A stretch of DNA of 64,000 bases, from positions 858-64,857 of the forward strand of contig JAVBNU010000026.1 of the NCBI GenBank assembly GCA_031551265.1, given 5' to 3'. The DNA comes from Candidatus Gastranaerophilaceae bacterium. GTDB lineage: Bacteria; Cyanobacteriota; Vampirovibrionia; Gastranaerophilales; Gastranaerophilaceae. Of the stretch, positions 43,591-61,536 are shown one piece after another. Position numbers and translations under genes: made by a program. The notes beneath the pieces were generated by a model. The model was not told the origin of the DNA and did no database searches. It saw only the letters and a program-made list of their open reading frames with translations. Numbering within the stretch: the first letter of the stretch is position 1; each line of letters starts with the position of its first letter.

Positions 43591-43597
43591 AACTATG

Positions 43598-43626: not shown

Positions 43627-43632
43627 GATAAT

Positions 43633-44019
43633 ATGACCAAGCACAAGCCAAAAGAATTGAATACCTTTGAAAAGAAGCTAAAAGACGACCTCGAAGAACG
43701 GTTTAAAGCGAAAGAGGTTAGCTTTTCAGTGTTTATTAATGAGTTAAGAGAGGATATGCCCACTGGCACAGAGAAGCCGAAGTTTGACGATTATAAAAAT
43801 AAATATAAAGCGGAGCGTTTGAAACTCCTACGTGCCTCATTCTCATACGACGAAGTACGGAAAATGCTTGATATAATTGGATATAGGATAGTCTTTACAG
43901 TCGCCGAGAAGACCATAACCCCCGCCAAAACCGTTTTAAAGGATATGAAAGTAAGATATACCGATGTCATGGCGGTTTGTGAGTTGCTAGGGATAGAGAT
44001 TGACTGGGTTGAAAAATAA
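43633..44019 (+). CDS. hypothetical protein, possible DNA-binding regulator
   Basis: Track ORF 43555..44019 trimmed to MTKHKPKEL. The C-terminal VCELLGIEIDWVEK resembles the end of an XRE-type HTH. Confidence 0.4.
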   Translation: MTKHKPKELNTFEKKLKDDLEERFKAKEVSFSVFINELREDMPTGTEKPKFDDYKNKYKAERLKLLRASFSYDEVRKMLDIIGYRIVFTVAEKTITPAKTVLKDMKVRYTDVMAVCELLGIEIDWVEK

Positions 44020-44354
44020 CCCACACCGCAGAGCCTTGTAAGCGCCCGATAAGACGCATTTCAGGGCTATTATATAATGTTTGGTTGACGTTATAAATGC
44101 CCTTTGGCTACGCTGAAAGCCATTTAGTGACACGCTTCTAGTCACTTTCTCATGCGTGCCGATATATTTAATATTCCCTTAAATGACCTCATAGATGGGG
44201 TTAAAGGCGCTTTCCCTGTGCGTCTATATCTTAAAAGTGGTGTTTTTTTCATTTTTCGCATGGCTCGACCGCCGTAAACAAAAAAGACATGCATACATTC
44301 TAAGTTAGGACAGTAAAAAAGGAGTTCTAATTTATGAAAAATAGAGTTGTCACT

Positions 44355-44483
44355 GTGCGGGTTGATGACAAGTTGGCGGATTTGTTAGATGAATTGCGTG
44401 ACGAACATCATATAAACATCAGTGATTTGGTTCGCCATATTTTGATGGATGCGCTTTTTGGCAGAGAGGGAAATAATAGATGA
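44355..44483 (+). CDS. ribbon-helix-helix protein (start uncertain or frame-broken)
   Basis: The open frame from 44337 reads ..NRVVTVRVDDKLADLLDELRDEHHINISDLVRHILMDALFGREGNNR. The good RBS and ATG (44333) are one frame off across an A6 run. The only in-frame start is the GTG at 44355. The stop overlaps the next ATG (ATGA). Confidence 0.45.
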   Translation: MRVDDKLADLLDELRDEHHINISDLVRHILMDALFGREGNNR

Positions 44484-45856
44484 ATTCTGTTCCCTTAAAT
44501 ACAGTTGGTGTTACTAAACATATATACCTACGCAGTATTGATATGACTAAACTAGATATTTGTGTAGGCGTAAGATACTTACTAGAGTACGTGAATAAGG
44601 TTTGTGATTCTGTTTGCATCACTGATAAAAAGAAGTATGTTAATAGGTTGTATGACCTCATCAACCTTATGGATAAGGATATTTTTAAGTATAGTGATTT
44701 TCTAAGTGAGGTTGATTTTTTAAAGAATAATGGCTTGACTTTGTATTCCTACTTGCCAAGTATAGAGCACTACATAGAGGATATAAGGACAGGTAATTTG
44801 TTTGAATCTCTTTCTATAAAGCCTTGTAGAGTTTATGGTCATAAGAAAAAGAGGTCAATCATTGATGATGAAAGTGACCTCAAACTGAATAATATTTATT
44901 TTTACTTTAATAATATATATGAAAAAATATCACCAGTTCATGCGATTAAGATTACTAAGATTATCCTATTTTTAATGATGTGTCATATATTTAAGGATAT
45001 TTCTTTATCTCATAATGTAAGATATTCATTTTTCGATTTAATTAAACCTATAGTGACTGGCTGTATTATTAATACGGACTTTGCCCTAAAAGGCAGGGTT
45101 TACAGTGATTATATGTTAGGGATGTTACAGTTGACACCCAATCACGTAGATAATAAGTTGACGATAAGAAAAAATACTAATCATCCATGTATTGAATTTC
45201 ACTACAACAATGACGAAGCTGATTTTTTGTTTCCAAGTTATGATGACATGCCTGTGAAAGATGTGAAAATGACCAATTATTTAAGGTATCTCAACGATAG
45301 GGATAACCAAAAGTCCATACCCATAACTAATTCCAGTTCATATATTACGTTAAGAGTTTATGGGGAATCCGATACCATGAAGGTGCATCTGACACTTAAG
45401 GGTATAAATATATTAAGAGAATTGCCCGAGTGTTTTACTATATTTGATATTCCCTATTCTCTCGAAGACGAAAATAATATTATACAGATGACTTATTATA
45501 TGTTCATCCTGATGTTGGAGCATACAGCGCAGCTTAGGTGGAATGAGTTTACTTATGATGTGGATGAGTTTGAAAGCCTTGCTACATATGATGAGATTGC
45601 TCTTATTAGACACCTTCAAAAGAAATACAATATAGACAGAGGCTTGTGTAGCCGTGTTATTAAGGCTATTGAACTGGCTAACCTCGCAGAAAGTGCTGTT
45701 GATGCCTACATTCGTAAGCGCTACAACTCCTGTAGCGATTCACACCAAATCCAAGACCTTAAAATGATGATTCAGGATGTGAAAGACTTTCAGGCATCTA
45801 ATCCGCCTATTAACCCTGTACAGGAGTTATACAAACGATTGGATAGTTCAAGGTAA
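44480..45856 (+). CDS. hypothetical protein (458 aa), no recognisable motif
   Basis: Long ORF with a 4-nt overlap with the upstream RHH ORF. Confidence 0.6.
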   Translation: MNSVPLNTVGVTKHIYLRSIDMTKLDICVGVRYLLEYVNKVCDSVCITDKKKYVNRLYDLINLMDKDIFKYSDFLSEVDFLKNNGLTLYSYLPSIEHYIEDIRTGNLFESLSIKPCRVYGHKKKRSIIDDESDLKLNNIYFYFNNIYEKISPVHAIKITKIILFLMMCHIFKDISLSHNVRYSFFDLIKPIVTGCIINTDFALKGRVYSDYMLGMLQLTPNHVDNKLTIRKNTNHPCIEFHYNNDEADFLFPSYDDMPVKDVKMTNYLRYLNDRDNQKSIPITNSSSYITLRVYGESDTMKVHLTLKGINILRELPECFTIFDIPYSLEDENNIIQMTYYMFILMLEHTAQLRWNEFTYDVDEFESLATYDEIALIRHLQKKYNIDRGLCSRVIKAIELANLAESAVDAYIRKRYNSCSDSHQIQDLKMMIQDVKDFQASNPPINPVQELYKRLDSSR

Positions 45857-45860
45857 GGAA

Positions 45861-47102
45861 ATGTTTTGTGAGGTAAAGGTTGACAAATTACGCTTTTGCA
45901 TAAATCGAATAAAATTACATGAACTGTTCCCATTGTTCGATATTTCGTGTATAGAGCGGAATTTAGAGCACTACTATGGGAAGATAGCGGGCAGAAAGTT
46001 CACAAAATCTGGGAATCTGATTATCGACATTACCCCCACAAGGCAGTTGAGAGAAGGGAAATACGTCAAGAACAACCTACAAATGCCCTCTGAACGAGTA
46101 TTTAACCAAGGTTTAAGCGGTATTATCCCTGATGTAGCGGTTCAAGGGATTGTGAGCATAACGAAATTACACTTAACGATTGATTTACGCTTGAGTGTAC
46201 CAACCTGTGCCTGCATAGAAATGCTATCCTGTCTTAAGTATAGGCGGCTGATAGCCCTTCAACTTTCTTCTAGTAAGCATAATGCCTCACTCTGCTTGAC
46301 TCATTCCAAACACGATATTAGGGAAAGAGACTCCACAGGAGCGCTAGTGTTCAAGTTCTACGCCAAAGAGCAGGAATACAAGGATAAACACAACTGCGAT
46401 ACCCTTGTGAATCTTAATGAACGCCTATCAGCACAGACAGCTAAGACTTTAGGAGCCTCCTATGACCGTATTAATAATACATTCGACATTGAAGGTCAAA
46501 ATCTCCTACGCGTAGAAATACAATTAGAAGACGCCAGCCAACTAAAAAAAGTTAATAAATTTCTGACCGACAATGATGGACGATTATTACTAAGCACCTT
46601 GACTGATAAAGCCAGTAACAACGTTCTTTACAGTAAGTTAGATGAGATTTTTAAGTGGTATTTAAAGGAATATGTATTTTACCGCAAGCCTGTTGCTGCA
46701 AACGAAAAATATACTGATGATGAGTTAGTCGCTGAACTACTGGAAAAGAGCGGTAGGCTTGACGTTTACAACGCTAGATTTAAAGATTTGGGAGAAGTTA
46801 AGAAATTTAAGAAATTGAGCAGTAAAATCGCTAACGTAGCCCCCACAAACCCCTTGTATAGCGAGTTATACCATTTATTATTTGATGAGCCTAACCCCAA
46901 TATCAGCACAAAAAATGAGCACGCCCAAAAGGACACTACCTCAACCGCTTTGATGGTGGTGTTTAGCGGAATTCACTCCATAGGGAAGGTGTATAGGGCA
47001 TCCATGAGAAATGTCGACGCTCGTGTGAGCGCCCTAAAGCGGTACACCCTCCCCATTGGCTACCCTGTGCCCTATTCTGTGCCGTATTGGGATGATAGTT
47101 GA
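45861..47102 (+). CDS. possible Rep_trans-type replication initiator/relaxase
   Basis: 413 aa. VDKLRFCI at the N-terminus, VFKFYAKEQE and LLRVEIQLED resemble the xYDKxxE and RxExxL blocks of Rep_trans / phage gene II-like initiators. This is from memory only. Confidence 0.35.
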   Translation: MFCEVKVDKLRFCINRIKLHELFPLFDISCIERNLEHYYGKIAGRKFTKSGNLIIDITPTRQLREGKYVKNNLQMPSERVFNQGLSGIIPDVAVQGIVSITKLHLTIDLRLSVPTCACIEMLSCLKYRRLIALQLSSSKHNASLCLTHSKHDIRERDSTGALVFKFYAKEQEYKDKHNCDTLVNLNERLSAQTAKTLGASYDRINNTFDIEGQNLLRVEIQLEDASQLKKVNKFLTDNDGRLLLSTLTDKASNNVLYSKLDEIFKWYLKEYVFYRKPVAANEKYTDDELVAELLEKSGRLDVYNARFKDLGEVKKFKKLSSKIANVAPTNPLYSELYHLLFDEPNPNISTKNEHAQKDTTSTALMVVFSGIHSIGKVYRASMRNVDARVSALKRYTLPIGYPVPYSVPYWDDS

Positions 47103-47121
47103 TATTTATCCTTATAAATAA

Positions 47122-47652
47122 TTATTTAGGGAGACTTTCAAGAAATTTGTTCAGTTCAGGTATTCCAAAACGTATAAGCATGTCTTTAATTTCAGCTGTT
47201 TTTGTAGGGTCATAATGAACACCTAATGATTTCTTGGAACGTTCCGAACCAAGTTCAAAGCTTGTTATATAATTAAATATACTAAAATCTATGTATGATT
47301 TTACTTGATTTAGTACATCATATGGAACACCGTACATTAAAAGAGCAGAATCCAAGGACTTTATTTTATCTGTGTTTTTTTTATCATTCAAGGTCTTAAC
47401 GGCAAGTAATTCCAAGAACGCATCCGAGGACAAGCCTAAAGCCTTCGCAAGAGAGACTAATGTATATATATTGGGCATTTTATTATTATAATTTTCTAAT
47501 GCTGATATAGCCCCTGTGCTAACACCTGATTCCTTTGATAGCTTGTCGGTTGACCAACCTAACTCATCGCGCTTCATTTTTATGGTGCCGCCAATGCCCT
47601 TGATTATACATTTAAGCTCTGTTTCTAGTAGTTCCTGCTGTGTTTTATCCAT
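47122..47652 (-). CDS. XRE/CI-like HTH repressor
   Basis: Track ORF trimmed to MDKTQQ after GGAGGG. The HTH is WSTDKLSKESGVSTGAISALENYNN. It is divergent from xis-int. Confidence 0.7.
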   Translation of the reverse strand: MDKTQQELLETELKCIIKGIGGTIKMKRDELGWSTDKLSKESGVSTGAISALENYNNKMPNIYTLVSLAKALGLSSDAFLELLAVKTLNDKKNTDKIKSLDSALLMYGVPYDVLNQVKSYIDFSIFNYITSFELGSERSKKSLGVHYDPTKTAEIKDMLIRFGIPELNKFLESLPK

Positions 47653-47765
47653 TTTAAGCCCTCCATGCCTTTTATTATACCACAAGCTTCATTGAAAATT
47701 ACATATTCGTTAAAAAGTTGAAGATTCAACTTATATTCATTATAAAATACGTATTCTTTAAAAGG

Positions 47766-47794
47766 TTGACTAAATTTAATTCATATGTTATAGT
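47766..47794 (+). promoter_or_regulatory. near-consensus promoter for xis-int of element A
   Basis: TTGACT-17 nt-TATAGT, followed by AGGAG and the ATG at 47833. Confidence 0.5.
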
Positions 47795-47832
47795 GAATAT
47801 ATAATTTAAAGAGAATAAAAAGGAGATAAATT

Positions 47833-48033
47833 ATGACCCCAAACTTAGGATTAATTACATTAAAACAAGCAAGTGACTTGTTTCCAGACAAACCTTGTGA
47901 AGCGACAATCAGAACATGGAAGCGCAGGGAAGACCTACCACCATTTATTTTTAAGAAAATAGGCGGTACGGTGTACGTCATCTTAAATAAACTGGTTGAA
48001 TGGATTGAAAACCCAACACAGGACGCAGCATGA
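47833..48033 (+). CDS. excisionase/AlpA-like small DNA-binding protein
   Basis: 66 aa lying immediately upstream of, and overlapping, the integrase gene by 4 nt. Sequence: ITLKQASDLF....TIRTWKRR. Confidence 0.6.
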   Translation: MTPNLGLITLKQASDLFPDKPCEATIRTWKRREDLPPFIFKKIGGTVYVILNKLVEWIENPTQDAA

Positions 48034-49052
48034 GCCAACGGACGTATAAAGATAATATTTGTGAGGAAAACGGTAAATTCTTTGGGAAAGTAACTGTCAA
48101 AGGCAGACAAAGACAGTTCTTGTGCCATGGTGCTAGGACTAAAGATGATGCGCGAGCTATTGTGGACGCTGAAAAATATTTACTTCGTCAGCAGATAGCG
48201 AAGCTAGTTCCTGAAAGTGAAAAGCCCTTGACGTTTTCCTTTATGATAAATAATTATTTAGAATACGTTAAAAAAAATAAGTCCTGTGATGCTAATGATA
48301 AAAACTATTGTAAGAAACTCTCGAAGTTCTTTGAGGGTAAGCTAGTTAAAGATTTAAAACGGAAAGATATTGAGAATTTTAGAGAATCACTCCGTAATGG
48401 TAAACGAAAAAATGCTACTATAAACCGCCATATGGAAGCATTGAGAAAAGCGTTTAATCTCTTAATTGAGGAGGATTTAATCCAATATAATCCATGTAAA
48501 GGCTTAAGACCGCTAGTTGAGAATAACCGCAGAAATGATTATCTTGTTGAAGATAGCGAGGACGATTTTTTAAACGCTCTACCTTATCCACAGCGAGATA
48601 TAGTGGAGTTCGCCATTTTAACGGGGCTAAGACAGGGTAACGTGTTCAACTTGAATAAGTCACAGGTGAGCCTTCAACGTATGCAGATAGAGATACAAAA
48701 GGCTGACAACAAAGGACGTAAAGAAATACGCATACCATTAATGGGTCGTCTTAAAGAAATTGTCCTTAAATACTATGATGAATCGGAGCATTTTCTATTT
48801 GTAAACCCTTTGACTGGCTACCCATACACAGATATTAGAAAAACTTTTAATAAGGCTAAGGAAGCTGTAGGGTTGCCTGACTTGGTGTTTCACGATTTAA
48901 GACGCACCACTGGCACGAAATTATTGAAGAAGGGAACAAATTTAAGGGTTATCCGTGACGTCCTCTCGCACAGCAGTGTAACGACTACGGAGAGATATTT
49001 GTGTGTCGATGATGAGGATATTTATAATGCTTATGCGTTGTTAAGTTCATAG
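48030..49052 (+). CDS. int: tyrosine site-specific integrase
   Basis: 340 aa with TGLRQGNV (Arg I), HDLRRTTGT (HxxR) and HSSVTTTERYL (catalytic Tyr). Confidence 0.85.
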   Translation: MSQRTYKDNICEENGKFFGKVTVKGRQRQFLCHGARTKDDARAIVDAEKYLLRQQIAKLVPESEKPLTFSFMINNYLEYVKKNKSCDANDKNYCKKLSKFFEGKLVKDLKRKDIENFRESLRNGKRKNATINRHMEALRKAFNLLIEEDLIQYNPCKGLRPLVENNRRNDYLVEDSEDDFLNALPYPQRDIVEFAILTGLRQGNVFNLNKSQVSLQRMQIEIQKADNKGRKEIRIPLMGRLKEIVLKYYDESEHFLFVNPLTGYPYTDIRKTFNKAKEAVGLPDLVFHDLRRTTGTKLLKKGTNLRVIRDVLSHSSVTTTERYLCVDDEDIYNAYALLSS

Positions 49053-49080
49053 AATAAAGATTTAATTCAAAACAAAGTCC

Positions 49081-49097
49081 AGTACATATGCAGTACA
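49081..49097 (+). repeat. arm-type repeat, element A right arm
   Basis: AGTACATATGCAGTACA has the same 11-bp-spaced AGTACA pair as 41403-41419. Confidence 0.55.
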
Positions 49098-49106
49098 CGA
49101 CAAAAA

Positions 49107-49142
49107 ATTACCACCTCTGAAACCCAGTGGTGGTAATTTTTT
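49107..49142 (+). terminator. intrinsic terminator after int (bidirectional shape)
   Basis: ATTACCACC-13 nt loop-GGTGGTAAT with a preceding A6 and a following T5. Confidence 0.6.
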
Positions 49143-49148
49143 ACAGAA

Positions 49149-49190
49149 TCGGAACGACAGGATTTGAACCTGCGACCCCTACCACCCCAA
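49149..49190. repeat. att site: 42-nt exact copy of the tRNA-Pro 3' end
   Basis: TCGGAACGACAGGATTTGAACCTGCGACCCCTACCACCCCAA is identical to 61356-61397. Confidence 0.85.
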
Positions 49191-49320
49191 CGTGAAACGC
49201 TGTCATGTCAACGGTTTTCAGATTTCACCACAACTTGTCAGAATTATTCATATGCATGGTTCTTTGATATTTTGATTGTCGCAGCGCTTTTCACAATTTA
49301 TCACGCTTTATCAGAATTTT

Positions 49321-49339
49321 TGCAACAAAAATGCAACAA
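49321..49339 (+). repeat. arm-type repeat, element B left arm
   Basis: TGCAACAAAAATGCAACAA: two TGCAACAA octamers 11 bp apart. Confidence 0.55.
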
Positions 49340-49567
49340 GCGCGAGATTGGTGTCAAAGGAGGAAGATTTAATATTAATGCAAAACTCCACATGAACAGG
49401 GGCGGGGAGGGGATTTTTTCCTAAATAGCCCTCGCTCTACCGGAGTCATAAAAAAATTCTGCTATTTTTGGATTTAAAAACGCTTCTTGTAAGGCTTAGT
49501 AGATTCTTTAAATAAAGAGAGTATTATGTAAATTTTATTAACAAATATATAATAATAAATAAAACCA

Positions 49568-49596
49568 CTTGACAAATATGGGATATTTTTGTAAAA
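49568..49596 (+). promoter_or_regulatory. consensus-like promoter for the two-gene cargo operon
   Basis: TTGACA-17 nt-TAAAAT, 40 nt upstream of the TTG start at 49637. Confidence 0.5.
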
Positions 49597-49636
49597 TACT
49601 TCATGTAACTACATATTAACAAATGGGAGAAATCCG

Positions 49637-50413
49637 TTGAAAGAATTTAATTTAGATTTTGGGCAAAACTTCATTAGTGCTATAGCAAACAGTATATCGG
49701 AAGCTGTAAGTTATGATATAAAACAAAGCAAGCAATTATTGAATACCCATACAACTAATAGTACACCAAATTTAATTTGGGACTTGATTAATACAAATAT
49801 TAAAAATAAATTAGGAAAAGAAAATGTGGAGATTATTACACAAAAAATTGGCTTATGGGAATTTTTAATTGTGTACGACAAATCTTCAAATAATGTTTTA
49901 ACAATAATGAGAGATGCTCGTTTGAAATTGCTTGTTCGGGGCCAAAATAAATACAAAAAGCATTATGCAGCTATTTTAGCATATAGATTCAACAAAGGAT
50001 TGCAACCTAAAGCAAGACAGCGTACCCTATTTGTTGTAAGTAGCAACGAAACTGAAGATAATAAATATAAAGAAATGATGTCCAATGAATTATGCAGCAA
50101 ATTTGAGTCGTTAGGTGACAACAGTAGATATGCAATAATAAGTTTTTCTGCGTCAAATTACCAATTAAATTCATTGGCTGTAAGTCTTTTCACTCCAAAA
50201 TTTGAACCGGTACATAAAGAATCTTTAGATAATTATATAAAGCCAAGTTATGATTCAATTCCTGATACTCTAGAATTGAAAACGACACCTGATATTGAAA
50301 TTAAGTTGACGCAAGAGGCACTTAAGAAAAAAGACGAAAGCAACAAAGAAGAAATGCCGCTACTTAAAGAAGATGAATCTTCCGATAAAAATAATCAATC
50401 CGCTGGAGAATAA
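49637..50413 (+). CDS. hypothetical protein (258 aa), candidate toxin/effector partner of the HTH-ImmA protein
   Basis: TTG start after GGGAGA. I recognise no motif. The C-terminal tail is acidic/Lys-rich. It ends 8 nt before the next gene. Confidence 0.55.
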   Translation: MKEFNLDFGQNFISAIANSISEAVSYDIKQSKQLLNTHTTNSTPNLIWDLINTNIKNKLGKENVEIITQKIGLWEFLIVYDKSSNNVLTIMRDARLKLLVRGQNKYKKHYAAILAYRFNKGLQPKARQRTLFVVSSNETEDNKYKEMMSNELCSKFESLGDNSRYAIISFSASNYQLNSLAVSLFTPKFEPVHKESLDNYIKPSYDSIPDTLELKTTPDIEIKLTQEALKKKDESNKEEMPLLKEDESSDKNNQSAGE

Positions 50414-50421
50414 ATATAAAT

Positions 50422-51585
50422 ATGAGTAAAAATAGATTTAACGGTGAAAGGCTAAAGCAAGCTAGGATATACCGTGGACTGTCGATAAATGACTTGGCTG
50501 AAATTCTTGATGTTTCAAAACAAGCTATTTCTCAGTACGAAAAGAGTGAAATTTCGCCAGAATTTAATAAATTATCATTAATTGTCAATAATTTAAACTT
50601 CCCCCCTGAATACTTTTTTCAATGCGATTCGTTTGATGTGGAAACGACAACAACTTATTTTAGAGCATTAATTTCCACAAACAAGATTAATCGTTTACAG
50701 CAAATTACCAAATTGAAACATCTTGCTATCATTCATGAAGTTTTAACCAAATACATTGAGTATCCTCTTTTTGATATCTCGCATAAAATAAATATTGATA
50801 ATAAATCAATAGAAGATTTTACTAGTGATTTAAGAGAACAGTGGGGATTGGGAATAGACCCTATTGATGACATGGCATACTTGTTGGAAAAAAATGGAAT
50901 CATTGTTACATCATACACAACTGAAACAAATAACATTGATGCTTATAGTCAAAAGATAACTATAAATGGAAAAGACCGGTTTATTGTTGTCTTATCAAAT
51001 GACAAATTATCTGCAACAAGGACGCAGTTTGATGCAGCCCATGAATTAGGACACATTTTTTTGCATAACTGGGGCATTGACCTTGAAGAGTTGTCTAAAG
51101 AAGAATTTAAAGAAATAGAAAATCAGGCTAATGAATTTGCTGCTTCTTTTTTATTGCCGAAAGAAAGTTTTATTCGAGACGTAAGCCTATATCCTAAAGA
51201 CTTAAATTATTACATAGAACTAAAGCGCAAATGGAAAGTATCTATAAGTGCTATGATTATTAGAGCTCATAGATTGGATGTGCTTTCTTTTAATCAATAT
51301 CAGTATTTGATGCGTCAAATGGCCTTTAAAGGGTGGCGCAACAAGGAACCACTTGATGGAGTTATTATGAAACCTCAACCTACTCTTTTAAGTAAATCTA
51401 TTGATATGCTTTTAGCCAATAATATTTTTACAGTAAAAAGTTTCTTAGATGAATTAGCCCAAAATACCTTGCCATTGAAACCAGAAGATGTTGAATTATT
51501 ATTAAACTTGAAAAAAGGTACATTAAAAATAGAGCCCATATCCAAAGAAACAAACATCTTGAAGCTGAAAAATGAACCTACATAA
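50422..51585 (+). CDS. fused XRE HTH + ImmA/IrrE (COG2856) zinc metallopeptidase
   Basis: 387 aa. The N-terminal HTH is LSINDLAEILDVSKQAISQYEKSE, and the peptidase HEXXH is AAHELGHIFLH. Confidence 0.8.
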   Translation: MSKNRFNGERLKQARIYRGLSINDLAEILDVSKQAISQYEKSEISPEFNKLSLIVNNLNFPPEYFFQCDSFDVETTTTYFRALISTNKINRLQQITKLKHLAIIHEVLTKYIEYPLFDISHKINIDNKSIEDFTSDLREQWGLGIDPIDDMAYLLEKNGIIVTSYTTETNNIDAYSQKITINGKDRFIVVLSNDKLSATRTQFDAAHELGHIFLHNWGIDLEELSKEEFKEIENQANEFAASFLLPKESFIRDVSLYPKDLNYYIELKRKWKVSISAMIIRAHRLDVLSFNQYQYLMRQMAFKGWRNKEPLDGVIMKPQPTLLSKSIDMLLANNIFTVKSFLDELAQNTLPLKPEDVELLLNLKKGTLKIEPISKETNILKLKNEPT

Positions 51586-51627
51586 TTACAATAATTTTCC
51601 AAATTTACAGGGACATTTACAAGGACA

Positions 51628-52722
51628 TTATTTTATAAACCTATCATTAATTTTATACTTACGACCACGTTTAGATGTATTGGCCGGGATTAAAAAGTTT
51701 TCTTTTGTCCATTTTGCAGCAAGCTCGCGAGCGGTGCGTTGGTTGCAGCCAAAGAATGCAGCTATGTCGTTTGTGGTTACAATTTCTTGTTGTTTGAATA
51801 ATATCAAGGCTTGCCGTTGTTTTGGGTCAAGGGTTTTTAGGATTGGTGAAATATCTTCTGTTTTCTGTAATGCGGCATGTTTTTGAACATTCTCAAATGC
51901 TGCCGCCATGCCAGCAATGAAATATTCAACCCATTTTGTGATGTCTGCTTCTGCTCGGCCCATGTAGTAATTATGTGAATTACCAACACTTATGGCAGCG
52001 TAGTAGCTGTGTAAATCTTTTGCATAATACTCTTCAAGTGAATAAATACCTTTAAGGTCATAGCCCCCTTTATACAAGACAAGAGTGGTTAAGAGCCTTG
52101 CAGTCCTGCCGTTACCATCATAGTATGGGTGGATTGTAGCAAATTGATAATGTGCAATGGCGGCTCTGATAGGGGCGGGAATTTCATTTGCAGTTTGATT
52201 CAGCCAACTTATGAAACTCCTCATTAAATCCTGGACGTCTTTTGCCTCAGGCGGCATATAAACAATCCCACCGGAAGCACTATCACGAATGACATTTTGC
52301 CCTTCTCTGTATGGTGTAGGTTTTACCTTTGGACTTCCACCGGCTTCAACAAGAGCATGAATTGTTTGCACTTGTTTTTCAGTTATTAAAGACTGCAATA
52401 ATGCCTGTTGTTCCATATATTCAATGGCTTTATAGTAGCCTAAAACTTCTTTCTCATCTCTCACGCGCTGCGGAATCTTGGCATGGTGCTGGATTACTTC
52501 AATGACTTCCTCTTGAGATAATCTGTTGCCCTCAATCTGTGTCGAATAGTGAACGCTTGTGAGTCTTGCGCTCTCACGCAGGGACGCCATAACAGCAGGA
52601 GTAATTGGCAAATCTTTAATATTTTCCTTGATTCGCTCAATCTTCAATAGATTGCTGGCAATTGTATTTGTGATTGTGTAATTTGGCTTAAATTCCGTCA
52701 TTAACTTCCACCTTTGCGTCAT
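51628..52722 (-). CDS. Fic-family AMPylase, class II (N-terminal inhibitory helix), with a C-terminal wHTH-like tail
   Basis: 364 aa. The Fic motif is HPYYDGNGRTAR, and the inhibitory (S/T)xxxE(G/N) motif is STQIEGN. An alternative start is M8 at 52701. Confidence 0.85.
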   Translation of the reverse strand: MTQRWKLMTEFKPNYTITNTIASNLLKIERIKENIKDLPITPAVMASLRESARLTSVHYSTQIEGNRLSQEEVIEVIQHHAKIPQRVRDEKEVLGYYKAIEYMEQQALLQSLITEKQVQTIHALVEAGGSPKVKPTPYREGQNVIRDSASGGIVYMPPEAKDVQDLMRSFISWLNQTANEIPAPIRAAIAHYQFATIHPYYDGNGRTARLLTTLVLYKGGYDLKGIYSLEEYYAKDLHSYYAAISVGNSHNYYMGRAEADITKWVEYFIAGMAAAFENVQKHAALQKTEDISPILKTLDPKQRQALILFKQQEIVTTNDIAAFFGCNQRTARELAAKWTKENFLIPANTSKRGRKYKINDRFIK

Positions 52723-52769
52723 TAATTAGTCATTAACATGTTATTATTATGTCATTAATTTGTCATTAA
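52697..52769. promoter_or_regulatory. array of five GTCATTAA boxes across the fic start and promoter
   Basis: Boxes lie at 52697, 52718, 52729, 52751 and 52762, with spacings of 21, 11, 22 and 11 bp. The palindrome GCAAATATTTGC follows at 52781-52792. Confidence 0.6.
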
Positions 52770-52891
52770 GTAAACCCTTTGCAAATATTTGCGTAGTGTT
52801 TCTTAGCATGGCGTCCCGTTTTTAGTGGTTTCCCGGTATGATTCAATAAACAGCTAGATACGAACGTATAAACGCAAGGGAGCAATATTTT

Positions 52892-53122
52892 ATGTGCGAT
52901 AAAAAACTTATAGAACAGCTTGAAAACAAGATATCTGTAGCGAAATTGTTATTATTCGACGCGCAGGCGTTGGTTAGATTTGGGGCACTAGCAAGTGATT
53001 CATGCATTGAAGATATTGAGTTACAGCTTAACAAAGGCCATGACGACTACTACATACTTTTAAAAGCAATTAATAAAAAAGTGGCAAAGGCAATAAAAAT
53101 TTTTGATAAAATTGATTCTTAA
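52892..53122 (+). CDS. hypothetical helical protein (76 aa)
   Basis: ORF from the track, convergent with and overlapping the XRE gene end by 4 nt. Confidence 0.4.
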   Translation: MCDKKLIEQLENKISVAKLLLFDAQALVRFGALASDSCIEDIELQLNKGHDDYYILLKAINKKVAKAIKIFDKIDS

Positions 53123-53334
53123 AATTGTTCAAATAATTCATTAGGTTTAATGTGCAGTGCTCTTGCAATTTTGAATACATTTTCAACAGTTGTGTTGCGC
53201 TCACCACGCTCAACCATACCAACAAAATTGGGTGACATATCAAGAATTTCAGCCAGTTCAAGCTGGGTCAAGCTACGCTCAATTCTCAATGCTTTCAATC
53301 TTTTCCCGAATTTTTGCAAATCTTTTTTACTCAT
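53119..53334 (-). CDS. XRE/Cro-CI-type HTH regulator
   Basis: 71 aa. LTQLELAEILDMSPNFVGMVERGERN is a canonical HTH_3 motif. Confidence 0.8.
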   Translation of the reverse strand: MSKKDLQKFGKRLKALRIERSLTQLELAEILDMSPNFVGMVERGERNTTVENVFKIARALHIKPNELFEQF

Positions 53335-53454: not shown

Positions 53455-53799
53455 ATGTTCAAACAATTATTTTCTTGTATAGTTGGTGGAATAAGTACGA
53501 TGGCAAACAAAAAAGGAACTTTTATTAATTATGCCAAACAATTCCTAAAAAATGCGCCAAAGACTTATGCAAAACTGGAACCATACTTACCGCAACTCGT
53601 TGACAAATTATTTGAGTATTCCAATAGTAAAGGATATAAATTAGATGATGAAGTTGGCCTAATGGAAGGTGCTTTATATATGTTTGTCAAACGTATAGCA
53701 GAAGATGAAATAAATAATTTACCTGTCTATGCTTCAACGTCTATTACTGAAGGCTTCATAGTATACAGAAGCCTTTTAGATGAATACCCTATTGAGTAA
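53455..53799 (+). CDS. hypothetical protein (114 aa)
   Basis: ORF with a GGAGA RBS, divergent from the XRE regulator. An alternative start is MANKKG. Confidence 0.45.
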   Translation: MFKQLFSCIVGGISTMANKKGTFINYAKQFLKNAPKTYAKLEPYLPQLVDKLFEYSNSKGYKLDDEVGLMEGALYMFVKRIAEDEINNLPVYASTSITEGFIVYRSLLDEYPIE

Positions 53800-53820
53800 T
53801 AAATTTAAAAGGAAACTATT

Positions 53821-54189
53821 ATGAAAAAATTTATTCTAATACTTTTATTGATGTTATCTGCGCCTATTATGACGGTACATGCTGAAGAAAAAGCCGGTAC
53901 AGTACATGTGATTGAAGAAGCATTAGAAATTAATCCTAATATAGAAATGCTTGTAGACCATAGTTTTCAAGGCGGTGTGAAAGTTAAAAGTATCAAGATT
54001 AAACAAGTAGAAATCATGCGTGATACAACGGTTGTGGTACATGGTGACATAACAGAAGGTGAGCCTAAAGGCATTGGTATAATAATTGAAATAACTGATA
54101 TGAAAGGAAATACGTCTGAATTGTTTGGCTACCAACCCTTGCAAATGGGAGATTATACATTTCGTATCAAAGACCCGAGGGCGCAGTAA
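53821..54189 (+). CDS. small secreted protein (122 aa)
   Basis: The signal peptide MKKFILILLLMLSAPIMTVHA is followed by a beta-rich sequence. Confidence 0.55.
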   Translation: MKKFILILLLMLSAPIMTVHAEEKAGTVHVIEEALEINPNIEMLVDHSFQGGVKVKSIKIKQVEIMRDTTVVVHGDITEGEPKGIGIIIEITDMKGNTSELFGYQPLQMGDYTFRIKDPRAQ

Positions 54190-54437
54190 ACTCCCATAAA
54201 CAGCTAGTTATACCTATATAAACCTAAGCTAAACATAATAATAACAAGCCTTAACAAGTCTCTTAAACTCAAATAGCCCTTCAATAATACCACACACTAA
54301 ATCGGCGCCCTTGTATTTTTGTTAATATTAATACCACTTAAGCAAAGATAGGATTTATTTCAATAGTTATACTATAAAATTATTTCACTTGAATTGATAG
54401 GAACATGCAGGCAGAAAAATACGAAAGGTTATAAATT

Positions 54438-54905
54438 ATGAATAAGAATAAAAACTCTACCGAAGGTGTATTTTGGGAAATTGTATTTGCTACCACTGTC
54501 ATTGTCATCGGAGCTTGTTTGGTGATTTATTATTTGGGCTACATACATGGCAAGAATAAATTCTTTAATTCAAGATATGAAGATGGATTCTATAATTGTG
54601 ATAAACTGTGGAAAGACCAAATAAAGAAAAAAGAAGAAGAGCAAAAGAAACAAATAACTAAAGACACTAAATTAATCTTGTATTATACAAGCAAAAGTTT
54701 TCCTGAAGTCAACACTACTAAATATACACTATATAATGATAATCTAAAACTGTCTGCTTCATACAATGTTAATGAAGGAAATGGTAAAAGTGATTATTCA
54801 AATAATATTTATTACAATGAAAATGATTTAATACTCAATATGCTAAAGAATGATATAGCAAAACAATTAACAGAAAAGTTTGTTATTGAAAGAGTTAATG
54901 AGTAA
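54438..54905 (+). CDS. N-terminally membrane-anchored protein (155 aa)
   Basis: One TM helix (VFWEIVFATTVIVIGACLVIYYLGY) followed by a Lys/Glu-rich linker. Confidence 0.5.
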   Translation: MNKNKNSTEGVFWEIVFATTVIVIGACLVIYYLGYIHGKNKFFNSRYEDGFYNCDKLWKDQIKKKEEEQKKQITKDTKLILYYTSKSFPEVNTTKYTLYNDNLKLSASYNVNEGNGKSDYSNNIYYNENDLILNMLKNDIAKQLTEKFVIERVNE

Positions 54906-55016: not shown

Positions 55017-55067
55017 TTATTCGTTTTTAAATTTAATATGGTATAATTGGCTTGGAAGGTAGTTTTA

Positions 55068-56168
55068 ATGAAAAAATTTAAGTTATTGCCAATAGATATA
55101 GGTTTTGATGATAGTTGTGTAACTCTGCCATACAGACAAGAAGCACAAGAGCTTTTCTTGTTGCTTGATAAGTATGGCAAAGATTTTAAAGATATTGATA
55201 ATGAAGAAATCAACGAACCTAATAATAATTTGATTAATAATTTGGTTAACTCCCTTGATAGCCTGAATGAACTTGAATTCATTATTGCCTTAAAAAAAGT
55301 ACAAAAATTAAATAAATTTTATCCCATAACAATTAGCTTTAATAGAGATTTAGGAAAGCATTACAAGAATTTTGCCAAAGTAACCGCAGCCCTCAAAAGT
55401 TCTTCCTCCTTTGCGGATATAGTAAAAATGCTTGAAAGTAATTTTGATGATACGACAGATGAATTCATATCGTACATCAATGGTTTTAATTATTTATTGA
55501 GCCTCTTTAAGTATGATACTAAAGAATTTCGGGAGTATTTAAAGCATTACAGGCGAAGTAAGTATATTTTGAACTACAGCAGCACTTTTGACTATTTAAA
55601 CTGGCATCTTGAACAAGATTTATTTGGTGAATTAAGAGATATTGGAAAGGCTAAAAGAGCTGTTAATGTTGAAATATTTAACTTTATGACTGCTAAAAAA
55701 ATTGGCACCATACAAATAATAATCAATTTACAAACTGCAAAAAATGAATACACAGAGGATACCTACCAGATTGGTTTTAAGTCTGCAAACATTGAATATA
55801 GATACATTAAAGCCGAATGGATAGAAAAATATGGCAAAGCATTAGTTGATGATTTTACTGAAAAATCTAAGACATATGCTAAAAAAGAATTAAGCCGTAA
55901 TGTTACTGAAATATTGGAAGCACGATTGAGTACATTTGAGGATTTGATTCAGTTTCAGAAAGATTTGATTGCGTTACATAATGATTGTTATAAAAAAGAA
56001 ATTTATAAAAACAAGTGCCAACACAAGATAAATAGCCATTCAAAACCTTGTGGCAAAGAATTTTTAACCTATGATAAACGTACCCCCTTCTGTTGTGAGT
56101 GTGTAGAAAAATCGAATTTAAATGCCCAAAGAACAAGAATGCACAGAGAGCGAAAAGCAAGAAAATAA
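55068..56168 (+). CDS. hypothetical protein with a C-terminal Cys4 zinc-ribbon and basic tail
   Basis: Track ORF trimmed to the ATG at 55068 (GGAAGG RBS, with an extended -10 TGGTATAAT at 55039-47). The C-terminus is CQHK..PCGKEF...FCCECVEK...RMHRERKARK. Confidence 0.55.
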   Translation: MKKFKLLPIDIGFDDSCVTLPYRQEAQELFLLLDKYGKDFKDIDNEEINEPNNNLINNLVNSLDSLNELEFIIALKKVQKLNKFYPITISFNRDLGKHYKNFAKVTAALKSSSSFADIVKMLESNFDDTTDEFISYINGFNYLLSLFKYDTKEFREYLKHYRRSKYILNYSSTFDYLNWHLEQDLFGELRDIGKAKRAVNVEIFNFMTAKKIGTIQIIINLQTAKNEYTEDTYQIGFKSANIEYRYIKAEWIEKYGKALVDDFTEKSKTYAKKELSRNVTEILEARLSTFEDLIQFQKDLIALHNDCYKKEIYKNKCQHKINSHSKPCGKEFLTYDKRTPFCCECVEKSNLNAQRTRMHRERKARK

Positions 56169-56455: not shown

Positions 56456-59311
56456 ATGGCAAAAAAATCAAAACTACAATTAAGTGAAGAACTTGTAATC
56501 GAAAAATTTGGACAACCAAAGGAAATCAAAAATGGCGAATGGATTTATCCATGTCCTTGTTGTTTAGATGAAGGCGGTGACAGTGACCACGACCATCTAA
56601 AAATCAACATTGCAAAAGGTTTTATAACCTGTTTTGCCAATCCGGAACATTCAAAAGAACTGGTAAAACAATACTTTGAAAACTTTGAGTCAGAGCCCAA
56701 AGTTTCTACTGGTGACCTTGAGGTAAGTCATGAAAAAGTACACTTAATGCACAATGAACTAAAAAACAACAAAGACGCTATGGAGCTTTTGTATTCAAAA
56801 GGTTACAATGAACAGACAATAAATAAAATGCAAATCGGACTTTATTGTGGCGATTGGTTTGTTTTACCTATGATAACACTTGATAATCAACTTGTTGGTT
56901 ATGAGTTCAGACATAGTAATAATTTCAAATTTTCCCATAAATCCAAAGGCTATGCTGATGATGAGCGGAAAACTTTGTGCCTGATTAATGATTCTGGCAA
57001 ACAAGAAAATCTACTTGTCATGGCAGGATTCAAAGACGGACATGTTATGTGGCGTTATCTTCAAGAATCAGGCAATCTTTTAGACTACACAGTTGTAACA
57101 GCTAGTAATGGCGAGGCAAATACATTAAGAGCTCTAAACGCAAACTCTGGTTTTGTTAAGAAATTCAAAAAAATAATTATTTGTTTGGACAAAGATAAAA
57201 CAGGTAAAGCCAGTACAAGGAAGATTGCTCTTGAGTTAGGTCTGCCTGTGCATGAATTAAAGCTACCATTTCTTAAAAACGAGGAAGATAAAAAATTCAA
57301 AGATTTTACGGATTGGTATAATCTTGCAAAAGAAATCGATTATAACGCTTCTATTTTGCCTGAAAAAGTAAAGCTTATACCTGAAAGTCGTATCAATAAA
57401 TGTATTAGTAATGAAGATACTCTAAATAAAGCTAAACTTGTTGATATATCTAAATTATCAGGAGTTCAGGCGGGTATTTACCCAACAAAATACGGTTATT
57501 ATGAGGTCTATTACAAAGGACAAGACAATGAAAAAGCTTACTTAATAAGAAAAACTAATTTTACTTTTCACATCACACGAGAAGTAATCAGTAATAATAA
57601 TAAATTTGATTTTGAAAAAGCACACAAGCTTGAACTTCACACTAGTATCAACGGAATAAAGACAAAATCTGTCATATTTTCACCTGATGATTTAACAAAA
57701 CCAGAAAAAATATCTGAAATTCTCAAAACAAACGGTATCCATTTTTCTTGTTTAAGTGCAAACGAACTCAAAAGCGTTTTAGAAACTGAATACCGAGATT
57801 GCAACCGCATTTTGCATATATTTGAAAACCCGGGTACTGCAAAAGTAGGTGACAACGAATATTGGCTATATAAAAATGCTTGTGTTATTACTACCACTGG
57901 TGAAATTGTCTTAGCACAAAAAGATTCTTTGATGAGGCAAGGTGTAATCAAATTAGACAATGATTGCGAAATGGCGCTTGAACCGACAAAAGGAATGCAT
58001 GCACCGGTATTGCCTGATGAAATTAAACTTGAATCTATGCTCAAAAAGTATAAATATCTCGAAGAAACTGCAAATTTATACAAAAGTATGCATGAAAAGT
58101 CGCCTGATTCGATTAATATTCTTACATCAGCTTTAATACGAAATACTTTAGAGTCATATAATGGAAGCATTGAACCATTTATGTTGCTTGGCAATATAAT
58201 TATGTCTCCTGCCATAGACACTGTTTATGAAGAAATTACAGGCTACCCTGTCAGCTATGCTTATGGTGAAGCACGTAGCGGTAAAAGTAATATTTTAACA
58301 CTCGGTGCAAAAATCTATGGATACAAGAGCAACTATCTAAGTGGTGGCAATGATACCAGTAACAATTTAATGCATAATATGGAATATTATAGCAAAACAC
58401 CCATATTATTCTCCGAAATAGAAGCTAATATAAGAAAGCGTTTTTCTGAAAATGTTAAGGCTTTATATGACCGCATACCTAGAAAACTGATGAAAGCATA
58501 CGGCGAAAATCAGAATATCAAAGCTATCAATGGGACTATTCACTTCGCTACAAATGATATGATTCCTAAAAATGAACAAACAATGTCCCGTTTGATTTTT
58601 ACCGAATTTAAACAAAATAATTTTGACTATACAAAAGCAATACCTTTCAACAGTGTACGAGATGATTTAATAGGTTTAATTTTGCCGCAAATGTTGCCCT
58701 TTCTTAATCATAAAAAATATATTGAGACTTTATTACGCAAAAACATTCTTGAAATCAAATTGCTTAAAGCAGAAAGTAAGTTGCAAATTGATGATAGAAG
58801 TGCTAACAACATTGCAGTTGCAAAAACAGGAATTGATTTATTATTCATAGTTGCAGGGATAGATTTGACAAATGCAAACAATGAAATAAAGCAAATGTTG
58901 GCAAATTATAAAGCTTATCTTGCTCAATATGCAGGTTTGGTTGAAACAAAAGACCATTTCGTCACATTCATGGAAATTCTTACAGAATTATTCAAGCAAG
59001 ACAGACCTGCATCAGGGAAAGATTATAAACTTTATAATGGAGGATTGGCAATTTATCTTAAACCAATAATGCCGGCATTCCGTGAAATCTTAAAGCGAAC
59101 CAGTGAACCCAACACATATATCCCTACAGAAACAGAAATCAAACATGCTGCAGAAAAACACGGATGTGAAACCAATTATAATGTTGATTTCTCAGGAAAA
59201 ACCAGACGGGCATTAGTTATTCCTAAAGATGTTGAGGGTGTGGATTACATAATATCCATAATAGGAACCACACCTGAAGAACAACAAAAATGTGCTGGCA
59301 AAGTGATATAG
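56456..59311 (+). CDS. bifunctional primase-helicase (zinc finger + Toprim + P-loop NTPase)
   Basis: 951 aa with a GGAGG RBS. It has an N-terminal CPCC...HDH Zn-binding region, a Toprim-like IIICLDKDKTGK, and Walker A GEARSGKSN with ILFSEIE. Confidence 0.7.
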   Translation: MAKKSKLQLSEELVIEKFGQPKEIKNGEWIYPCPCCLDEGGDSDHDHLKINIAKGFITCFANPEHSKELVKQYFENFESEPKVSTGDLEVSHEKVHLMHNELKNNKDAMELLYSKGYNEQTINKMQIGLYCGDWFVLPMITLDNQLVGYEFRHSNNFKFSHKSKGYADDERKTLCLINDSGKQENLLVMAGFKDGHVMWRYLQESGNLLDYTVVTASNGEANTLRALNANSGFVKKFKKIIICLDKDKTGKASTRKIALELGLPVHELKLPFLKNEEDKKFKDFTDWYNLAKEIDYNASILPEKVKLIPESRINKCISNEDTLNKAKLVDISKLSGVQAGIYPTKYGYYEVYYKGQDNEKAYLIRKTNFTFHITREVISNNNKFDFEKAHKLELHTSINGIKTKSVIFSPDDLTKPEKISEILKTNGIHFSCLSANELKSVLETEYRDCNRILHIFENPGTAKVGDNEYWLYKNACVITTTGEIVLAQKDSLMRQGVIKLDNDCEMALEPTKGMHAPVLPDEIKLESMLKKYKYLEETANLYKSMHEKSPDSINILTSALIRNTLESYNGSIEPFMLLGNIIMSPAIDTVYEEITGYPVSYAYGEARSGKSNILTLGAKIYGYKSNYLSGGNDTSNNLMHNMEYYSKTPILFSEIEANIRKRFSENVKALYDRIPRKLMKAYGENQNIKAINGTIHFATNDMIPKNEQTMSRLIFTEFKQNNFDYTKAIPFNSVRDDLIGLILPQMLPFLNHKKYIETLLRKNILEIKLLKAESKLQIDDRSANNIAVAKTGIDLLFIVAGIDLTNANNEIKQMLANYKAYLAQYAGLVETKDHFVTFMEILTELFKQDRPASGKDYKLYNGGLAIYLKPIMPAFREILKRTSEPNTYIPTETEIKHAAEKHGCETNYNVDFSGKTRRALVIPKDVEGVDYIISIIGTTPEEQQKCAGKVI

Positions 59312-59659: not shown

Positions 59660-60787
59660 GTGGCAAAAGTATTCAAACGCAAATGGAAAAATAGAAAAGG
59701 TGAAGGCTCGACCTGGGCTTTCACTTATTCTGATACTTTTGGCAAACGCAAGATTGAAAGCGGCTTTGATACTAAAGCAGAAGCCGAAACAGAGCTTTCT
59801 AAGCGCCTTCAAGAAGTTGACAACGGAATGTATCAAGAGGTTAACAAGTCTCTCACCTTCGCTCAACTCGCTGAAAAGTTTATGAATCACTATGCTAAGC
59901 TACATCTTGAACAATCAACTTATGACACACATGAAACCAATTTGCGGGTGCATTTAATGCCTATATTTGGCAAAATGAAGATTTTAGATATCACAACGAG
60001 TACAATTAATGAGTTTATCGTATTGAAAAAAGATTGTACAAATCTCTCAAACGCAACCATAAATAAGATTGTAGCACTTTTAAAAAATATTTTCTCAAAT
60101 GCTTATCAAGATGGTATAATCAATCGCAACCCTTCTTTAAGAGTCAAAAAGCTCAAAGAAGCAAAGCCTGAACAGTTATTTTTGACAAAGAAAGAAGTTG
60201 ATGCGGTGCTTGAAGCTGCAAAGCAACATTATCCTGATTTCTTCCCCCTTTTGTTCTGTGCGGTATCAACAGGCGCCAGGCAAGGCGAGTTATTTGCACT
60301 CACATGGGACAAAATTAATTTTGTTGAGGACTATATTAAAATTGACCGCAGTGTATATAAAGAAAAGTTCAAAGCACCCAAAACGCTATCATCTATTAGA
60401 AAAATATACATTAGTGATGAATTGATTAAAATTTTGAAGTCATGGCGTCTGCGCTGCCCTCACAGCGAACTTAACCTTGTGTTCCCCAATAAGGTCGGTG
60501 GGTTTATGGACGGACATAATATGAGGAACCGTGAATTTAGTGCTGTTTTAAGGCGTGCAGGAGTGACACGGGTGCGATTTCATGACCTTAGACATACATT
60601 TGCAAGTCTGTTAATTACAAACGGTGCTAACATTAAATATGTTCAAAATCAACTAGGCCACGCCACAACTGATATGACATTAAATACATACTCGCACTTG
60701 ATGCCTGAATCTATTGATGAAGGTGTGCAAATTATGAATGGTATTTTTAGTTCGAAAGATAATGATGTCAGGAAGTTTGGGACGTAG
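59660..60787 (+). CDS. int: tyrosine site-specific integrase
   Basis: 375 aa with a GTG start. Motifs are TGARQGEL, HDLRHTFASL and GHATTDMTLNTYSHL. Confidence 0.9.
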   Translation: MAKVFKRKWKNRKGEGSTWAFTYSDTFGKRKIESGFDTKAEAETELSKRLQEVDNGMYQEVNKSLTFAQLAEKFMNHYAKLHLEQSTYDTHETNLRVHLMPIFGKMKILDITTSTINEFIVLKKDCTNLSNATINKIVALLKNIFSNAYQDGIINRNPSLRVKKLKEAKPEQLFLTKKEVDAVLEAAKQHYPDFFPLLFCAVSTGARQGELFALTWDKINFVEDYIKIDRSVYKEKFKAPKTLSSIRKIYISDELIKILKSWRLRCPHSELNLVFPNKVGGFMDGHNMRNREFSAVLRRAGVTRVRFHDLRHTFASLLITNGANIKYVQNQLGHATTDMTLNTYSHLMPESIDEGVQIMNGIFSSKDNDVRKFGT

Positions 60788-61271: not shown

Positions 61272-61355
61272 AATCGCTTTTTTGGCAAATTTTAGGCTGA
61301 AATGCAAAGAGTTGCAAAATGCTTAAAGCTATGTCTTGCAACTCTTTTAACAATT

Positions 61356-61429
61356 TCGGAACGACAGGATTTGAACCTGCGACCCCTACCACCCCAAGGT
61401 AGTACGCTACCAAGCTGCGCCACGTCCCG
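61356..61429 (-). tRNA. tRNA-Pro (anticodon GGG)
   Basis: Hand-folded 74 nt: CGGGACG-TG-GCGC-AGCTTGGTA-GCGT-A-CTACC-TTGGGGT-GGTAG-GGGTC-GCAGG-TTCAAAT-CCTGT-CGTTCCG-A. G37 and the TTCAAAT T-loop are present. CCA is not encoded. Confidence 0.85.
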
Positions 61430-61536
61430 ATATTTTCATTATGCTATTTAATTTTCAATTTTCGTTTTTTCGGGACTGCCGCAGCTATCCCCTCCATTTC
61501 GCATCTGACATTAAGTCAGCTGCTCACGGAGTCCTT

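Follow-up and report, generated by a model that had tools for sequence, protein, structure and literature searches.

Two adjacent genes, rmrT and rmrA, lie near the left end of a 12.2-kb integrative element (here termed 'element B') within a 64,000-nucleotide stretch of DNA from a Candidatus Gastranaerophilaceae bacterium (contig JAVBNU010000026.1; the whole of this stretch is referred to as 'the window'), and together they constitute a RosmerTA toxin-antitoxin locus of a catalogued subtype (the 'DUF5986 type'), which is other than the one verified in Escherichia coli. A preliminary description of this DNA had recorded a near-consensus promoter, followed by a 258-residue open reading frame (ORF), a gap of 8 nucleotides and a 387-residue ORF, and all of these were found again; they are collected with the surrounding features in Table 1. 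The rmrT gene opens with a TTG codon, which is the earliest start codon in its frame and corresponds to the residue from which homologues align, and rmrA begins exactly 8 nucleotides past the TAA of rmrT on the same strand. The promoter-like sequence upstream of the pair (TTGACA-17-TAAAAT) is the top-scoring site of its kind within positions 49000-52900. Because the AT-rich DNA that was scanned yields many such sites (27, as compared with 17.4 +/- 4.4 in shuffled sequences), its assignment as a real promoter is plausible rather than proven.

Table 1. Features of the rmrT-rmrA locus, of element B and of the neighbouring element A (positions in the window)
Feature	Position	Strand	Remarks
Sigma-70-like promoter of rmrT-rmrA (predicted), TTGACA-17-TAAAAT	49569..49597	+	11/12 consensus positions; putative function
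Shine-Dalgarno GGGAG, 7 nt 5' of the rmrT TTG start	49625..49629	+	sequence reading
rmrT, DUF5986-type RosmerTA toxin gene, TTG start	49637..50413	+	258 aa; Pfam and PADLOC matches
QRTLF, RmrT residues 128-132, beta-clamp-binding-motif-like peptide	50018..50032	+	family alignment
rmrA, antitoxin gene, XRE-HTH fused to M78 / ImmA-IrrE Zn-peptidase, ATG start	50422..51585	+	387 aa
XRE-type HTH domain of RmrA, residues 11-65	50452..50616	+	Pfam HTH_3, E 1.8e-10
M78 / IrrE-like metallopeptidase domain of RmrA, residues 168-282	50923..51267	+	Pfam PF06114, E 4e-17
SoFic-like Fic-domain gene, convergent with rmrA	51628..52722	-	364 aa; PADLOC SoFic E 2.1e-54; Pfam Fic E 1.3e-20
Cro/CI-type HTH gene at divergent junction	53119..53334	-	71 aa; Pfam HTH_3 E 4.5e-15
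Primase/helicase-like replication gene, element B	56456..59311	+	951 aa; PHROG 239 'DNA primase/helicase' E 2.4e-18; weak Toprim, DUF927
Tyrosine integrase, element B	59660..60787	+	Pfam Phage_integrase E 2.9e-26; PHROG 1 integrase E 4e-87
tRNA-Pro(GGG), intact, integration site of tandem elements	61355..61430	-	ARAGORN
Partial tRNA-Pro copy (3' part), attachment (att)-type direct repeat: left boundary of element B, right boundary of element A	49138..49201	.	64 nt, 88% identical to 61345-61408, a segment overlapping the intact tRNA-Pro gene
AAA_14/DUF4143 ATPase with NERD-like tail, element A	41626-42939		
XRE-type HTH gene, element A	47122-47685	-	
Small excisionase-like ORF, element A	47833-48033		
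Tyrosine integrase, element A	48030-49052		

The product of rmrA had been described as an XRE-type helix-turn-helix (HTH) domain combined with an ImmA/IrrE-type peptidase, and both domains are borne out by Pfam (as HTH_3 and Peptidase_M78, respectively). The zinc-binding signature of the peptidase reads HELGH (residues 207-211; positions 51040-51054), and its residues H207, E208 and H211, along with E233, are invariant in 33 homologues. Over its whole length, the protein corresponds to PADLOC RmrA model PDLC03944 (E 4.7e-156, positions 2-382 of 384); it matches 14 PADLOC RmrA models full length, with E-values from 4.7e-156 to 1.8e-38, and has no better assignment.

The product of rmrT had been thought to carry no recognisable motif, and to be an unrecognised partner that might represent a new effector family. 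That view is not supported. The protein is a full-length member of Pfam family DUF5986 (PF19448), with residues 7-241 covering profile positions 3-232 of 238 (E 2.1e-41; 142.5 bits, at a gathering threshold of 25), and it matches the existing PADLOC RmrT model PDLC03930 over positions 3-243 of 247 (E 2.8e-41). All DUF5986 clades map to that same model, and the phage-borne copies are already labelled 'DUF5986 family protein' in RefSeq. An exhaustive search was required in order to gather the homologues of this family (a word-indexed search with the toxin alone returned 2 matches), and it produced 263 representative clusters at E<=1e-3, of which the nearest relative is 40% identical. Scans of the genome and viral collections with the toxin alone as query found nothing, nor did a tblastn search of plasmids, and the toxin of the window has no match in NCBIfam. 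Family and fold searches had been suggested as the route to an identity for this protein; the former, in Pfam and PADLOC, supplied it, and the latter did not. An AlphaFold2 model of RmrT (predicted local distance difference test, pLDDT, 89.5; predicted template modelling score, pTM, 0.78) found no match at E<0.01 in Foldseek searches of the PDB and BFVD, where all TM-scores were below 0.3, and the DUF5986 profile has no meaningful match among PDB sequences. A few PD-(D/E)xK nucleases appear in the Foldseek noise; a nuclease reading of RmrT was not adopted, because the family lacks a conserved D...(D/E)xK triad.

Because both genes match PADLOC RmrT and RmrA models, the pair falls within the bioinformatic definition of RosmerTA: the antitoxin combines an HTH with an HExxH motif, the toxin gene adjoins it in the same orientation, and the module is kept across genomes. 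The RosmerTA-like layout noticed in the preliminary description is therefore upheld, now with a full-length match for each partner. The RosmerTA system of E. coli OLC-716 protected against phages, and rmrA could not be deleted (Millman et al. 2022; 10.1101/2022.05.11.491447, the supplement of which provided the verified sequences used here for comparison). A RosmerTA system of Gordonia phage Kita, which has a different toxin, has likewise been shown by experiment to protect against phages (PMC10440598). By analogy with these systems, the DUF5986 subtype would be expected to be both toxic and protective. Since it is an ordinary example of a catalogued defence system, the locus reveals no new effector family; its value is rather as a way into the mechanism of RosmerTA toxins, to which one membrane toxin and the recent genetics of RipA and DnaN have so far given access.

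The association between the two genes can be traced from either partner, and it answers a question that had been posed at the outset, namely whether homologues of the 258-residue protein occur beside HTH-peptidase genes. At loci found from DUF5986 proteins (using five different queries), a gene for an HTH plus M78 protein of 377-409 residues lies directly downstream in nine of nine cases, and many of these nine loci have restriction-modification, Vsr, Macro or RhuM genes beside the pair. From the side of the antitoxin, an RmrA alignment was used to scan a single genome from each species, and 68 loci were recovered, 61 of them assessable, which were searched with hidden Markov models made from two alignments (A1 and A3). 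A DUF5986 gene is found directly upstream of the RmrA relative at 60 of these 61 loci, being intact at 54 and fragmented or truncated at six; at the remaining locus it is absent, and the rmrA gene there is itself N-terminally truncated. The six broken toxin genes (loci L019, L020, L033, L038, L042 and L049) stand beside intact rmrA genes, as would be expected of a toxic gene, and this pattern is consistent with selection acting against a functional toxin, although assembly errors in metagenome-assembled genomes (MAGs) may account for some of the cases.

The closest relatives of RmrA (60-63% identity) are found in MAGs of Candidatus Gastranaerophilales / Melainabacteria, and others in Clostridia, Negativicutes and Bacilli. 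The DUF5986-RmrA pair is also carried by temperate phages, as gp71-gp72 of phiCD27 and as gp31 (the 'DUF5986 family protein') and gp32 of phiCT9441A, and the phage copies adjoin late or terminase genes.

A possible indication of how RmrT might act is provided by the peptide QRTLF (Table 1), which resembles the motif by which proteins bind the beta sliding clamp of DNA replication, DnaN. The consensus for clamp binding is Q-L-x-L-F, or in full QLSLF (PMC4549789), and the consensus of the corresponding loop in the DUF5986 family, [KE]-Q-[LIM]-[ST]-L-F-[DE], coincides with it at every position; several members read exactly QLSLF, and Q128 is invariant among the close relatives of the window's RmrT. 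In the AlphaFold2 model the peptide lies within a coil region (residues 119-137) at a pLDDT of about 87-91. Among 97 family members, 32 of the loops contain the pattern Q..LF, which is absent from the remaining 23,127 residues (and present, on average, in 0.8 of 97 loops after shuffling); for the more permissive pattern Q..[LIMF]F, the count is 48 of the 97 loops, with a single match in those remaining residues (2.1 of 97 when shuffled). An independent set was assembled from the 54 genes that adjoin rmrA in genomes, which gave 47 distinct loops: Q..[LIMF] with a further hydrophobic residue within four positions is present in all 47, and Q..[LIMF][FLIMV] in 26.

A similar peptide is found in a second family of RosmerTA toxins. 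The verified RmrT of E. coli carries QLKLDL in an acidic linker, and eight plasmid-borne homologues from that E. coli RmrT family (loci L080-L087) carry, where they align with it, QLDLF, QIDLF, QLSLF, QMYLF, QLELDL or QLFLPG in a linker that varies in length; an XRE/ImmA-IrrE gene follows the toxin gene at all eight of these plasmid loci. The motif is thus present in two RmrT families that have no detectable sequence similarity to one another (hhalign probability 0.3%). A clamp-binding hypothesis for RosmerTA toxins was not found in the searchable literature.

As regards mechanism, the nearest relative to have been characterised is the RipA/RipB pair (Spr1630/Spr1629) of Streptococcus pneumoniae, which its authors place in the Rosmer family and in which the toxin targets the DnaN sliding clamp (PLoS Genet 2025, PMC12795458). 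RipA is neutralised by RipB, and ClpX is needed to restrain it; RipA and DnaN interact in yeast two-hybrid assays, and suppressors of RipA are substitutions at five DnaN residues, clustered in its hydrophobic protein-binding pocket (PMC12795458). A binding motif is not mentioned in that paper (PMC12795458); a Q-x-x-L-F-type loop, such as the one predicted in DUF5986 proteins, would fit the docking of a toxin into the same pocket.

The antitoxin of the window's module, and some members of the family of its toxin, can be connected to this system by sequence. Its RmrA matches the NCBIfam 'spr1629 family repressor/antitoxin' (NF052239) over residues 6-347 (E 1.1e-70), and among the 97 members of DUF5986 there are eight with a match to the 'spr1630 family ClpXP-sensitive toxin' (NF052238), all well under the cut-off of 125 bits. 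In the best of these matches (P0108, from Paenibacillus; E 1.2e-8, 35.2 bits), the alignment is colinear and nearly full length, with residues 12-207 on positions 4-210 of 246, and a second member (P0061) is also colinear with the model (E 5.2e-7). A profile search from the DUF5986 clade closest to spr1630 returned DUF5986 proteins only. Another member of the family (P0039) has, in addition, a weak match to a further PADLOC RmrT model, PDLC03931, which has 246 profile positions, as many as the NCBIfam spr1630 model, and a similar aligned range; PDLC03931 is probably a model of the RipA/Spr1630 type, and would represent a sister family of DUF5986.

Taken as a whole, these observations suggest a model in which a single promoter would drive rmrT and then rmrA, the expression of which might be coupled across the gap of 8 nucleotides. 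The RmrA protein would hold RmrT harmless by means of its XRE HTH and Zn-peptidase, probably with help from ClpX(P), and its HTH would probably repress the operon as well. If the control by RmrA were lost, as might happen when a phage infects the cell, unrestrained RmrT could bind the hydrophobic cleft of DnaN through its QRTLF loop; occupation of the clamp would be predicted to stall DNA replication, so that the infected cell and the phage both cease to replicate. We lean, by a modest degree, towards this account of the locus as a RosmerTA module of the DUF5986 subtype on element B in which RmrT poisons the clamp and RmrA restrains it; the identity and families of the genes, their linkage, the mobile-element setting and the conserved peptide are shown here, and the toxicity and defence of this subtype, clamp binding through the loop, the trigger and the autoregulation of the operon are all inferred.

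A number of points weigh against this account. The homology between DUF5986-type RmrT and RipA is remote and transitive, because the window's RmrT has no match to the spr1630 model and its RmrA scores 238.7 bits, under the 335-bit cut-off of NF052239, which makes it a relative from outside that equivalog family. The strict forms of the motif (Q..LF or Q..[LIMF]F) are limited to one third to one half of the members, and many DUF5986 loops are variants of the type Q-M-T-L-x-D-F. Because the confidence of the model is fairly high at the loop, this part may be packed on the fold and not free to bind. The residues N41, D49, H109/Y110 and N119, all nearly invariant and polar, lie outside the loop, and they hint at an additional site that may be enzymatic. 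Clamp targeting is, moreover, not universal in RosmerTA, since at least one of its toxins is a membrane depolariser (PMC10440598). No convincing palindromic operator is found around the promoter of the pair, and neither a mention of DUF5986 nor experimental work on the toxicity or defence of this subtype was found in the searchable literature.

The nearly invariant polar residues also lend themselves to a different explanation of the loop, in which the RmrA zinc-peptidase would recognise or cut the toxin at the Q-x-x-L-F peptide, or the peptide would be a degron for ClpXP, and the toxin would act by some other means (for instance enzymatically, with N41, D49, H109/Y110 and N119 making up the active site). 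The two dissimilar toxin families that carry the motif have as their demonstrable common trait a homologous RmrA partner, so that such a site would account equally well for the shared motif, and peptidases of the ImmA/IrrE type do cut their partners at specific sites (as with ImmA-ImmR and IrrE-DdrO, cited in PMC10440598). The confident modelling of the loop, which does not resemble a floppy tail, would suit such a site as well. The agreement of the DUF5986 consensus with the clamp-binding consensus at all of its positions argues in the other direction, as does the finding that RipA, the sole characterised relative, interacts with DnaN and is suppressed by changes in just that pocket where motifs of this kind are bound. 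We therefore regard this explanation as unlikely in its exclusive form; it is compatible with clamp poisoning, in that RmrA could cut or mask a clamp-binding motif.

A wider version of the clamp proposal is that several families of RosmerTA toxins (those of the DUF5986 type, those of the spr1630/RipA type and the family of the verified RmrT of E. coli) are clamp poisons that act by way of a QLxLF-type motif, which RmrA and ClpXP would mask or cut; we put this forward tentatively, and would grant it rather less than an even chance. If it is true, then RosmerTA is largely a family of replication-arrest defence systems, and the motif has either arisen by convergence or is all that can still be seen of a common ancestry of its toxin families. 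The presence of one shared peptide in two dissimilar RmrT families offers a hypothesis for this widespread group of defence systems that is simple and can be tested directly, and it suggests that the result from S. pneumoniae may extend to the phage- and element-borne copies in Clostridia, Negativicutes and Bacilli, and probably to those in Melainabacteria.

The genetic setting of the pair bears on what purpose it might serve. Copies of the 3' part of tRNA-Pro at 49138-49201 and (in a third, shorter form) at 41268-41298 mark out two tandem integrative elements, of which element B, at about 49.2-61.35 kb, is inserted in tRNA-Pro. The preliminary description had placed the promoter at the left edge of element B, which is about right: the repeat ends about 370 nucleotides upstream of it. 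An 86-residue ORF at 49164-49424 overlaps the tRNA fragment of this repeat and is most likely spurious. The description of the pair as 'cargo' is supported by its position at the integrase-distal end of the element, by the repeats that bound the element and by its neighbour, the SoFic-like gene. That gene ends 42 nucleotides from the stop codon of rmrA, with no terminator found between the two, and its Fic motif (HPYYDGNGRTAR) is intact; its product scores 68.6 bits against the NCBIfam SoFic model, far under the cut-off of 550 bits. By sequence, it is a candidate for a second defence gene, sharing the cargo slot with the pair.

Carriage on a mobile element also raises the possibility that the pair is mainly an addiction or stabilisation module for the 12.2-kb element (or, elsewhere, for a prophage), with phage defence secondary or absent. 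The tRNA-Pro repeats and the copies in temperate phages would agree with such a role, neither rmrA nor ripB is dispensable in the presence of the toxin (a classical signature of addiction), and the role described for RipAB in S. pneumoniae is the induction of competence and not defence. Homologues of the pair are, however, often located in chromosomal restriction-modification and defence islands with no obvious mobile element, the window's pair adjoins a SoFic-like defence gene, and two other RosmerTA systems protected against phages by experiment. Addiction and defence are compatible roles, and addiction as the main function seems to us distinctly doubtful.

A second possibility of this kind had been raised at the outset, namely that the 387-residue protein is an ImmR/ImmA-style switch for the excision or replication of element B, with the 258-residue protein as an accessory. 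The M78 peptidase and XRE HTH are indeed the domains of ImmA and ImmR, and the locus does lie on an integrative element. Several other features speak against such a role, and we hold it to be very improbable. The protein is tied to DUF5986 at 60 of 61 loci whatever the element, including restriction-modification islands that are not mobile and the late or terminase regions of phages; its gene is at the far end of element B, about 8 kb from the integrase, convergent with the SoFic-like gene and away from the regulatory junction; and its full-length matches are to RmrA models. The element has, in addition, a Cro/CI-like HTH gene of its own at a divergent junction, the 71-residue product of which is likely, from its sequence, to be the regulator of element B. 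An 86%-identical copy of that HTH protein is encoded in a Gastranaerophilales MAG (locus L010, positions 2246-2440), about 700 nucleotides upstream of a RosmerTA pair, and at another locus (L017) an integrase and a primase fragment are found near the pair; the pair therefore seems to travel on related elements within that lineage.

The remainder of the window can be described briefly. Element B encodes proteins of 373, 155, 122 and 114 residues (55047-56168 and 53455-54905) that have no match in Pfam, PHROG or NCBIfam; the 373-residue protein has a cysteine-rich, basic C-terminal tail (CxxC...CxxC), and G+C content reaches its minimum for the window (0.286) at 54-56 kb. A scan of the viral collection with the primase of element B found nothing. 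Element A (41268-49201, about 7.9 kb) is inserted in tandem at the same tRNA-Pro site, and neither Pfam nor PHROG gave a match for two large ORFs in it (44480-45856 and 45861-47102). Ordinary chromosomal genes occupy the leftmost 41 kb, among them those for GlmS, CarAB, ValRS, a PLD-type synthase and NhaB.

Four groups of known systems provide useful points of comparison. The ImmR/ImmA proteins of ICEBs1, IrrE/DdrO and CapP/CapH share with RmrA the combination of an XRE HTH and an M78 HExxH peptidase, and the best PDB sequence matches of RmrA are to CapP (7t5t) for its peptidase and to P22 C2 / ICEBs1 ImmR (7t8i) for its HTH. In contrast to those systems, the two domains are fused in one 387-residue protein, which is coupled to a toxin gene and not to the regulatory junction or integrase of an element, and the genomic partner of which is DUF5986 and no one kind of mobile element. 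SocAB of Caulobacter crescentus resembles the proposed module in mode of action and target, since SocB is reported to block replication by binding the beta clamp, and ClpXP takes part in the control of the toxin (Aakre et al. 2013, as cited in PMC12795458). It differs in that SocA is a ClpXP adaptor and not an HTH-peptidase, and SocAB is not known to serve as a defence module on mobile DNA; SocB has no sequence or structural relationship to RipA (PMC12795458).

The RipA/RipB pair comes nearer, being likewise an operon in which a toxin of about 250 residues is followed by an XRE-HTH/ImmA-like antitoxin, and it departs from the proposed module in its described pneumococcal output of competence. 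In the RosmerTA system of E. coli OLC-716, the toxin belongs to a different family (it maps to PDLC03935, whereas that of the window maps to PDLC03930/DUF5986), and the antitoxin to a different subtype (PDLC03949 there and PDLC03944 here). The order of the genes is nonetheless the same, with the toxin first, followed by an antitoxin of about 370-390 residues that has an N-terminal XRE HTH and an HExxH zinc-peptidase; the two RmrA proteins are 30% identical over 338 residues (E 3e-40), and in both families of toxins a peptide resembling the clamp-binding motif is carried by a linker in the middle of the protein.

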